A stretch of DNA of 64,000 bases from an uncultured Oscillospiraceae bacterium. Its GTDB lineage: Bacteria; Bacillota; Clostridia; Oscillospirales; Oscillospiraceae. The notes under the pieces are model-generated. The model saw nothing but the letters and a program-made list of their open reading frames with translations. It did no database searches and was not told the origin of the DNA. Position numbers and translations under genes: made by a program. Shown here piece by piece: positions 5,409 through 6,875 of the stretch (the first letter of the stretch is position 1; every line of letters starts with the position of its first letter). The stretch is taken from assembly GCA_900764755.1 (NCBI GenBank), contig CAAFPE010000046.1:30964-94963 (forward strand). The letters run 5' to 3'.

Positions 5409-6875
5409 ATGGAGAAAAAACTGTTCAGCCCGATGGAGATTGACGCCATCGGGGAGATGATGAATATCAGCCTTGGCTCCTCGGCTACAGCGGTTTCCAA
5501 TATGCTGGACCACAGGGTGGATATTACAACGCCGCAGGTAACGGTGGTGGATGTCGCGAATTTTTCCATCGGCAATCTGGAGCCGGCCATGGGCGTTGAG
5601 ATCAAGTATGTGGAGGGGCTGGAGGGCTCTAATATTATGTTGCTGCGGCGCAGCGACATTAAAGTGATTGTCGATATTCTCATGGGCGCGGAAACGCCGG
5701 ACGAGGAATTTGAACTCAATGAATTGACCGTCAGCGCTGTCTGTGAGGTCATGAATCAGATGATGGGTGCGGCATCTACGGCATTGTCGGATTTTCTTGG
5801 ATTCCCGGTCAATATCTCCACACCGACACCTTTTGAACTGGAAAATCTGGACGAGTTTAAAGAGGCGCATCTGCCGCAGGGTGCTGACACGGTTGTAGTT
5901 GTGCGGTTTTCTCTGAAAATCGAGAATACGCTGGAGAGCGAGTTCATGAATGTCATGAGCGTATCGCTTGCTAAGGAACTGCTGCAGGCGCTGGGGCTGG
6001 GCGATGAAGATGGTGAGGAAAATAGTGATGCCGTTTCCGCACCCTCCAGCAGTTCTAAAACGGAAGATGCTGGCAGCAGACAGCTGAGTCAGGCGGAAAT
6101 TGAGAAGCTTCTGGCGGCCAATGCAGGAGGAGCACAGCAGTCCGAAGCACCAGAAATCAACCAGCCGCAGACTGACAGCAGCAGACAGCTGAGCCAGGAG
6201 GAAAGCGAGAGGCTGATGGCAACCAATCGCAATGGTGAACAGCCTTCGACCGGTTTGGAGTCGTCGAAACAGACAGAGGCGGGCGGCAGCCGGCAGCTGA
6301 GCCAGGAAGAAATCGAGAAGCTGATGACTGGCGGCACAGCGGCATCTCCTCAACAGACATCGGCCAACATACCGATGCCGCAGGCAGCCGCACCTCAGTT
6401 GGGCTATCCGTTTTCTCCCGCGTCCGAGCAGGGAGGGTTCCTGCCTGATGCAGGGAGGATGGGTTATCCGCCACCGTATTATCCGCCCTATCCGTATCCG
6501 TACCCCTATCCGCCCCAGCAGCCGGCTCAGCAGCCAGATTCGAAGGTGATAGCAGCTAAGCCGGTCCCCATGCCGGAAATGGATGCACGGGAATCGTTGG
6601 GCAAAGAGCAGGCACAGAATCTGGATCTGATCATGGAGGTTCCTGTTCAGGTGACTGTGGAGATCGGGCGTACGCAGCGTAAGGTTCAGGATATTCTGGA
6701 GTTTAATAAGGGATCGCTTGTGGTGCTGGATAAGCTGGCGGGCGATCAGGTGGATCTGTTTGTAAATGGAAAATGTATCGCGAAAGGTGATGTTGTGGTG
6801 ATCGACGATAACTTTGGCGTTCGTATTACGGAAATCGTTCAAAAGTATGATGAGGATAAAAAGTCAAAAAAGTGA
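5409..6875 (+). CDS. fliY: flagellar motor switch phosphatase FliY (CheC-like N-domain plus FliN/SpoA C-domain) with an unusual repeat-bearing linker
   Basis: The N-terminus (EIDAIGEMMNISLGSSATA) matches the CheC-like domain of B. subtilis FliY. The C-terminus (RTQRKVQDILEFNKGSLVVLDKLAG...) is FliN-like. The internal linker holds three LSQxEIEKL repeats and a YPYPYP tract. Confidence 0.85.
   Translation: MEKKLFSPMEIDAIGEMMNISLGSSATAVSNMLDHRVDITTPQVTVVDVANFSIGNLEPAMGVEIKYVEGLEGSNIMLLRRSDIKVIVDILMGAETPDEEFELNELTVSAVCEVMNQMMGAASTALSDFLGFPVNISTPTPFELENLDEFKEAHLPQGADTVVVVRFSLKIENTLESEFMNVMSVSLAKELLQALGLGDEDGEENSDAVSAPSSSSKTEDAGSRQLSQAEIEKLLAANAGGAQQSEAPEINQPQTDSSRQLSQEESERLMATNRNGEQPSTGLESSKQTEAGGSRQLSQEEIEKLMTGGTAASPQQTSANIPMPQAAAPQLGYPFSPASEQGGFLPDAGRMGYPPPYYPPYPYPYPYPPQQPAQQPDSKVIAAKPVPMPEMDARESLGKEQAQNLDLIMEVPVQVTVEIGRTQRKVQDILEFNKGSLVVLDKLAGDQVDLFVNGKCIAKGDVVVIDDNFGVRITEIVQKYDEDKKSKK
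6060..6335 (+). repeat. three tandem ~108-nt coding repeats inside fliY, each encoding SRQLSQ(A/E)E(I/S)E(K/R)L(L/M)
   Basis: CAGACAGCTGAG(T/C)CAGG... recurs at about 6075, 6181 and 6291. The peptide resembles the FliM/FliY N-terminal CheY-P binding motif LSQxEIDALL. Confidence 0.8.

Follow-up and report, generated by a model that had tools for sequence, protein, structure and literature searches.

The flagellar switch phosphatase FliY of an uncultured Oscillospiraceae bacterium carries three copies of a short motif in the long linker between its CheC-like phosphatase domain and its FliN/SpoA domain. The motif is of the kind that stands at the N-terminus of the switch protein FliM and binds phosphorylated CheY (CheY-P). 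The gene, fliY (5409..6875, + strand, 488 residues), lies in a stretch of 64,000 nucleotides (contig CAAFPE010000046.1, positions 30,964 to 94,963), here called the window, whose own numbering we use throughout. An earlier note on this DNA had described the arrangement for this locus. Our comparison widens the picture: a FliY with one to five linker motifs is the clade-wide normal architecture of the Oscillospiraceae and Lachnospiraceae and is not specific to this genome. Judging from the sequences, we consider it rather likely that the linker motifs are CheY-P docking sites of the FliM-N/EIDAL class, which would tether CheY-P near the CheC-type active sites of FliY.

Three FliM-Type Motifs in the Linker of FliY

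All three motif copies that the earlier note placed between the CheC and FliN domains are present there on the + strand. Copy 1 (SRQLSQAEIEKLL, residues 223-235, 6075..6113) has the core LSQAEIEKLL, copy 2 (SRQLSQEESERLM, residues 258-270, 6180..6218) the degenerate core LSQEESERLM, and copy 3 (SRQLSQEEIEKLM, residues 294-306, 6288..6326) the core LSQEEIEKLM; the pattern they share is SRQ-LSQxEIExL[LM]. A motif expression run over the six frames of the 64-kb window matched the N-terminus of FliM (nt 4406) and these three sites only, and a looser expression gave 0.028 matches per composition-shuffled FliY. In copy 1, residues S227, Q228, E230, I231 and E232 are invariant among 20 diverse orthologues.

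The motifs are spaced by 35 and 36 residues (105 and 108 nucleotides), in agreement with the spacing of about 36 residues noted before. The accompanying claim of ~108-nucleotide DNA repeats held only for a part of each unit. A repeat search returned a three-copy direct-repeat family of 60 nucleotides (6054-6113, 6159-6218 and 6267-6326) with 67-78% identity, and Tandem Repeats Finder called no ~108-nucleotide array in 5000-7500, so the DNA likeness is confined to the motif-coding core of about 60 nucleotides and the spacers are unlike. What is repeated in FliY is a motif of the protein, and the DNA core that encodes it has diverged.

Copies 1 and 3 conform to the EIDAL-class consensus L-S-Q-x-E-I-D-x-L-L, and copy 2 departs from it at Ile6, having Ser266 where 422 motif copies from orthologues have Ile (bar rare Val). 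At position 266, Ile stands in two representatives that are both 99% identical to the FliY of the window, P0001 (16 member sequences) and P0002. The difference is one base in the codon at 6204-6206 (AGC vs ATC) and is private to this genome; it is either a real mutation weakening copy 2 or a sequencing error. As the sequence stands, copy 2 is probably weakened, and the genome would carry two canonical copies and one degenerate one. The suggestion that the docking site had been relocated and tripled is borne out, at the level of the sequence, as to the relocation, while "tripled" overstates the case, given the change of Ile to Ser in copy 2.

At the other end of the protein, the docking peptide is missing. 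As had been read before from the sequence, FliY opens directly with the first CheC catalytic helix (N-terminus MEKKLFSPMEIDAIGE / MEKKLFSPMEIDAIGEMMN): its match to the NCBIfam FliY equivalog NF005995 begins at profile position 31 of 376, and the reading frame is closed by a TAG three codons before the fliY ATG, which rules out an N-terminal extension. No CheY-P-binding peptide precedes the CheC domain here, and a motif within the first 40 residues was found in none of the 191 distinct full-length FliY orthologues. The N-terminal segment PMEIDAIGE, considered as a docking peptide for its EIDAL-like look, is instead the catalytic helix (D-x3-E-x2-N) of the CheC fold.

An AlphaFold2 model of FliY, built with the 20-sequence alignment, gave the CheC domain a predicted local distance difference test (pLDDT) score of about 80. 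The linker scored below 50 outside three short helices (228-237, 263-272 and 299-307), which coincide with the motifs; their 10-residue blocks average 56-72, against 35-44 in the flanks. The FliN domain was modelled poorly, as is expected when an obligate intertwined dimer is predicted as a monomer. The FliM N-terminal peptide folds on binding CheY (PDB 1F4V, 4IGA), and the modelled short helices in a disordered linker are the behaviour expected of a linear motif that folds on binding.

We also looked at a match between copy 1 with its tail (residues 223-249, SRQLSQAEIEKLLAANAGGAQ) and the TALE-like repeats of BurrH (PDB 4CJA/4CJ9, summed E 5e-7), in which the 33-residue BurrH repeat aligns as GKRGFSQADIVKIAGNxGGAQ. 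We judge this kinship to be due to chance because the per-repeat i-Evalue is about 1e3 or more and the tail AANAGGAQ is unconserved in orthologues; it is an artefact of a summed score on a repetitive target.

Conservation of the Linker Motifs

A protein search yielded 7,949 homologues, the best 120 of which were examined, and scanning GTDB with one genome for each species added 80 loci. The sample covers Oscillibacter, Intestinimonas, Flavonifractor, Evtepia, Acutalibacter, Agathobaculum and Butyricicoccus of the Oscillospiraceae, and Lacrimispora, Dorea, Coprococcus, Hungatella and Anaerotignum of the Lachnospiraceae. Every one of the 191 distinct full-length orthologues has at least one motif in the linker: 42 have one copy, 71 two, 74 three and four of them four. 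Six close representatives that seemed to be motif-less (P0121, P0122, P0124, P0135, P0139 and P0161) turned out to be frameshifted or chimeric gene predictions and are not true exceptions.

The logo of the 422 copies reads G-G-(K/R)-(Q/K)-[LM]-S-Q-[EA]-E-I-E-x-[LM]-[ML]-A-G. Gln3, Ile6 (bar the rare Val) and Glu7 are invariant, though the search pattern permitted alternatives at these positions, and position 7 is never Asp. Within the ten-position core, information content is 2.6 bits at position 8 and 3.1-4.3 bits everywhere else; the flanking positions mostly have 1.5-2.7 bits, with the Gly-rich positions -4, -3 and +12 reaching 2.7-3.2. In the 20-sequence alignment, the only conserved features of the linker are the motif and a Pro/Tyr tract, and the spacers between motifs are unalignable Pro/Ala/Gly-rich sequence. 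The earlier note would have given up its reading had the repeats of relatives proved to be unconserved low-complexity sequence. The outcome was the opposite, with the motif strictly kept and only the spacers and the copy number varying.

The codons tell a similar story. When fliY of the window was compared with five orthologous loci, the ratio of nonsynonymous to synonymous changes in the motif codons was 6:8 (L001), 8:14 (L002), 6:9 (L004), 12:8 (L006) and 5:8 (L011), while in the rest of the linker it was 56:36, 80:36, 89:40, 75:43 and 98:33, respectively. Motif codons thus change mostly synonymously in four of the five comparisons, L006 being the exception, and they evolve more conservatively than the remaining linker.

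Farther away, a CheC-domain search of the full library recovered 2,018 relatives at E<=1e-3, and the best 150 representatives include 43 complete FliY proteins. Linker motifs, one to four per protein, occur in 17 of these 43, some of them closer to the canonical form: LDQSAIDALL in three to four copies (P0194, P0195), MDQSxIDRAL in two (P0153) and LDQDAINAML in two (P0211). A single one of the 43 has the canonical N-terminal peptide alone (P0231, MSSTLSQAAIDELL), and this peptide also occurs in several incomplete or multi-CheC-domain proteins (P0157, P0209, P0223, P0251 and P0257). Since some distant FliY proteins have linker repeats and others an N-terminal peptide, the docking element takes alternative positions in the family.

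Two side observations concern these relatives. Some FliY-like proteins have two or three tandem CheC-like domains (P0133, P0140, P0148, P0157 and P0176, with 800-860 residues; P0144, P0155, P0160 and others, with 550-650 residues). Some of them carry an N-terminal EIDAL-type peptide (P0157, P0209, P0223). Throughout this group, multiplication has affected the catalytic domain and not the docking motif. In a set of Lachnospiraceae loci (L048, L049, L053, L060, L061, L065, L068-L072, L075 and L079), the open reading frame (ORF) before fliY has about 150-170 residues, mostly starts with MSFLSS(M/F)(N/D)IS and looks like a rod protein, not FliM. The gene order around fliY in these loci therefore differs from that in Oscillospiraceae, and the linker motifs are kept.

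Copy-Number Turnover

The earlier note asked whether the number of repeats is polymorphic among relatives, and it is. Representative P0002 is the same protein as that of the window minus exactly one 36-residue unit, and the junction fuses copies 2 and 3 into a hybrid, which reads in the sequence as a signature of unequal recombination between units. Copy number is polymorphic in four of the 16 clusters with CheC domains at least 97% identical: 39 proteins with two copies vs 34 with one, four vs three, three vs one, and one pair with two vs four. One representative, P0127, has five copies that recur every 28 residues. The units of many species, including their spacers, are near-identical inside one protein and different between species, which points to recurrent duplication or homogenisation.

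Such a pattern induces us to propose that the docking site was shifted from the N-terminus into the linker in this lineage. Units of 25-44 residues would then have been gained or lost by unequal recombination, making the number of docking sites per FliY (one to five) an evolvable parameter. It is tempting to go one step further and to suppose that, through in-frame gain and loss of units of about 75-130 nucleotides by unequal recombination, the motif number serves as a fast-evolving gain control of the motor, although we think this rather doubtful. Were it true, the unit number would set how many CheY-P molecules are held per FliY subunit beside the active sites, shifting the balance between signal reception (FliM, Q-I-D motif) and signal termination (FliY, E-I-E motif). 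Strains of gut Clostridia would in this way tune tumble bias or response time with the folded domains untouched, and the array would amount to a protein-level "contingency repeat" within a chemotaxis pathway.

Proposed Function and Alternative Explanations

The neighbouring FliM begins with MAEVLSQSQIDALL, and its docking peptide LSQSQIDALL is encoded at nt 4406-4435; the canonical CheY-P binding peptide that the earlier note recognised there is indeed present. FliM N-termini in more than 60 related loci all read M..VL[ST]Q[SAN][QE]ID[AM]L[LI]. Each genome hence contains two motif classes, Q-I-D-A on FliM and E-I-E-x on FliY. The core of Escherichia coli FliM is LSQAEIDALL, and copy 1 (LSQAEIEKLL) is identical to it at eight of ten positions. 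The CheY encoded next to FliY has its best PDB match in Thermotoga maritima CheY (4IGA/1TMY, E=4e-43), where 4IGA is the CheY of the complex with the FliM peptide. The alpha4-beta5-alpha5 region is near-identical to that of T. maritima CheY, and by its sequence the protein is a canonical CheY of the Thermotoga/Bacillus type. In each Oscillospiraceae locus with genes listed, cheY comes directly after fliY. CheY-P is known to bind the EIDALL motif with which FliM and FliY begin (PMC9126983). This CheY is the presumed partner of the linker motifs.

We infer CheY-P binding by the motifs, an effect of tethering on dephosphorylation and a behavioural effect of copy number, along the following lines. 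The motifs would be helix-forming islands in the disordered linker and would engage CheY-P through its alpha4-beta5-alpha5 face. With about 30-100 residues between them and the pair of CheC-type active sites on the same protein, they would create a high local concentration of CheY-P beside the catalytic helices, much as the N-terminal peptide of Bacillus and Thermotoga FliY and the C-terminal peptide of CheZ do. The C-ring might thereby become an efficient sink and phosphatase for CheY-P, in competition with the single N-terminal site of FliM.

Several points weigh against such a role. A recognisable motif is absent from 25 of the 43 complete, more distant FliY representatives, so docking is dispensable for some FliY proteins. 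Copy 2 of this very genome is without the invariant Ile. The FliY subclass of the motif (E-I-E, acidic at positions 4-5) is consistently unlike the FliM subclass (Q-I-D-A) of the same genomes, and a different affinity or partner is therefore possible. Finally, according to a review, T. maritima FliY binds activated CheY no tighter than inactive CheY (PMC7355467), a result that casts some doubt on the role of the FliY docking peptide even in model systems.

The main rival partner is FlhG, a MinD-like ATPase that binds FliY in Bacillus subtilis and Geobacillus and controls flagellar number and C-ring assembly; the linker motifs would then be sites for FlhG, which would either take the place of CheY-P or compete with it. 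In peritrichous B. subtilis, the partner of FlhG is FliY and not FliM (PMC12826062), and the EIDAL motif of Shewanella FliM has been reported to be necessary and sufficient for FlhG binding. A division of partners would also fit the difference between the two motif subclasses within one genome. This explanation is weakened by the gene content of the cluster. The usual position of flhF and flhG in Firmicutes is downstream of flhA, whereas in the window flhA is directly followed by fliA, flgF, flgG, cheC and cheD, and the cluster has no flhF or flhG. The same flhA-fliA order without flhF/flhG recurs in L085 and L086, two Oscillospiraceae loci with about 60% FliY identity, the flhA and fliA ORFs overlapping or adjoining in all three cases (window 10607-13518, L085 15369-18313, L086 8766-11696). 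Moreover, the sole MinD/ParA-type Walker A motif in the window belongs to an ORF at 19591-20370 (- strand, 259 residues). It was tried as a hidden FlhG and rejected: among solved structures it is closest to ParA/Soj, no NCBIfam cutoff is reached, and the protein begins at the P-loop without an N-terminal activator peptide or extension. Judged from the genes of the window and of the two orthologous clusters, FlhG docking seems to us distinctly improbable.

The motifs might instead dock another receiver, motor or chemotaxis protein (CheV, CheB or another factor), or act in cis, folding back onto FliY or FliM/FliN to regulate the assembly of the C-ring; neither role would have them capture CheY-P for hydrolysis. 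Here, again, the systematic difference between LSQEEIExLM in FliY and LSQSQIDALL in FliM is suggestive, and the cluster also contains a gene for CheV (CheW+REC, 16181-17128). Yet the motifs closely match CheY-binding FliM peptides from elsewhere, including the E. coli core, cheY directly follows fliY wherever Oscillospiraceae genes were listed, and the canonical N-terminal peptide of FliY, absent here, is the obvious thing that the linker motifs replaced. We hold this alternative to be unlikely, if slightly less so than FlhG. As for neutral duplication in a low-complexity linker with a fortuitous resemblance to the FliM peptide, the Pro/Ala/Gly-rich surroundings and the readiness with which units expand and contract are what it would predict. 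It is effectively refuted by the conservation data, namely three positions fixed throughout 422 copies from two bacterial families amid unalignable spacers, mostly synonymous change of the motif codons unlike the remaining linker, and at least one copy kept in 191 of 191 orthologues against the chance rate obtained with the loose pattern on shuffled proteins. We give it hardly any credence. CheY-P docking by the linker motifs remains the interpretation that we prefer.

Domain Organisation of FliY and Gene Neighbourhood

The identity of FliY is well supported. The protein scores 322.6 bits against NF005995 (cutoff 218), and fliY adjoins fliM within the flagellar operon, as befits this family. 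Pfam finds two CheC stretches and FliMN_C at residues 407-477 (E=1e-22). The best solved relative is the middle domain of T. maritima FliY (PDB 4HYN, E=4e-31), followed by FliN structures. Two CheC-type active sites can be read from the sequence, D12-x3-E16-x2-N19-x22-P42 (PMEIDAIGEMMN..., 5442..5534) and S109-x3-E113-x2-N116-x22-P139 (5733..5825), both on the + strand. Both are intact, and their residues are invariant in the 20-sequence alignment. The interdomain linker of about 200 residues (approximately residues 197-401, 5997..6611, + strand) is predicted to be disordered but for the three short helices, and it is followed by the FliN/SpoA domain (residues 402-479, 6612..6845, + strand; Pfam FliMN_C), matched by the FliN structures 1O6A, 1YAB and 8UMD at E 1e-21 to 1e-24. 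SctQ and T. maritima FliM/N led us to consider whether translation might also start internally, at Met388/Met391 ahead of the FliN domain; this idea was set aside, as no Shine-Dalgarno sequence is evident upstream.

No Pfam family covers the motif array. PF28396, a precomputed Pfam match on all homologues that we had suspected of being a linker family, proved to be SepQ_C, which by hit order lies just upstream of FliMN_C. It is also important to note that NCBI names at least two CheC+FliN proteins of 479-501 residues (P0091, P0118) "flagellar motor switch protein FliN"; public records under-annotate the FliY proteins of this clade.

The Pro/Tyr tract (YPPPYYPPYPYPYPYPPQQ, residues 353-371, 6465..6521, + strand) separates the motif array from the FliN domain; in it, Y353, P354, P355, Y363 and P364 are invariant in the 20 orthologues. 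A TATCCG hexamer array within it (6489-6512) was the sole call of Tandem Repeats Finder in 5000-7500. In B. subtilis, an SPP motif in fliY pauses ribosomes, and swarming needs elongation factor P (EF-P) (PMC6613710). The tract suggests that translation of its consecutive prolines is EF-P-dependent in this FliY as well.

The gene belongs to a large flagellar and chemotaxis cluster with the order flgD, flgE, (flbD), motA, motB, fliM, fliY, cheY, fliO, fliP, fliQ, fliR, flhB, flhA, and then fliA, flgF, flgG, cheC, cheD and cheV. Upstream of fliY are motA (2676-3548), motB (3569-4318) and fliM (4394..5398, + strand, 334 residues), whose product matches Pfam FliM and FliMN_C and scores 212 bits against TIGR01397, slightly below the cutoff of 219.6. 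Downstream, cheY (6938..7306, + strand; Pfam Response_reg) encodes 122 residues from MGKK in an ORF that opens at 6926, and flhA occupies 10607-12703. A stand-alone cheC (15065-15712, + strand) and cheD (15702-16184, + strand) have the corresponding NCBIfam matches, and cheV comes next; the motif scan found no docking motif in the stand-alone CheC.

Some neighbours deserve a brief comment. A 439-residue ORF (17271-18590, + strand) between cheV and a ComFB-like gene matched nothing in NCBIfam at E<=1e-5. The ComFB-like gene encodes a 304-residue protein with a ComFB-like domain (18640-19554, - strand) and adjoins the gene of the ParA/MinD-family ATPase discussed above. Together (18640-20370, - strand), the two genes run opposite to the flagellar cluster that surrounds them, beside fliD (20524-22947), and they might position or regulate flagella.

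Comparison with Known Systems

Canonical FliY, as in B. subtilis and T. maritima, consists of an N-terminal CheY-P-binding peptide, a CheC-like phosphatase domain and a FliN domain. The FliY described here resembles it in its two intact active sites, its C-terminal FliN/SpoA domain, its place after fliM and before cheY, and its motif class. It differs in that the peptide sits in the linker, in one to five tandem copies and with E-I-E instead of E-I-D, and in that the linker has about 200 residues with a Pro/Tyr tract. With the N-terminal peptide of FliM, the linker motifs have in common the 10-residue core, the hydrophobic register (L1, I6, L9, L10), the Ser-Gln pair, a disordered surrounding segment and a predicted short helix. 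Unlike that peptide, which is single and N-terminal, they are internal and repeated, have Glu at position 7 (Asp in FliM) and at position 5 (Gln in FliM of this clade), and reside on a phosphatase, not on the switch transducer.

CheZ offers a further parallel. It has a C-terminal CheY-binding peptide ...SQDQVDDLLDSLGF, which a flexible linker joins to a catalytic four-helix bundle. By analogy, both CheZ and the FliY of this clade would be phosphatases with a flexibly tethered peptide for the alpha4-beta5-alpha5 face of CheY-P and a separate catalytic site, and their core sequences, SQ-x-x-[IV]-D-x-LL, are similar. The catalytic folds, however, are unrelated, and CheZ has one C-terminal peptide per chain, which is not known to vary in copy number. 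The FlhG-binding EIDAL motifs of Shewanella FliM and of Bacillus and Geobacillus FliY share the motif class and the protein family; they are single N-terminal motifs, whereas the cluster described here and two orthologous clusters are without flhF/flhG.

"Sporadic" full or degenerate motifs have been noted in FliN and FliY (PMC6946799), and a full-text literature search turned up no published account of a FliY whose docking motifs are internal or in tandem. The position and valency of a known motif on a known protein thus appear to be undescribed, and our observations extend, and do not overturn, the current understanding. They also matter for annotation and modelling, in view of the "FliN" misnaming and of a motif array that lies outside Pfam families.

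Overall, the FliY proteins of two large clostridial families from gut and rumen share a distinct, conserved solution with strain-level variation in copy number. This provides a natural allelic series for asking how substrate tethering and docking valency govern the speed at which CheY-P is removed at the motor, which has until now been studied for the most part with CheZ. In these bacteria, capture of the chemotaxis signal at the motor is possibly tunable.

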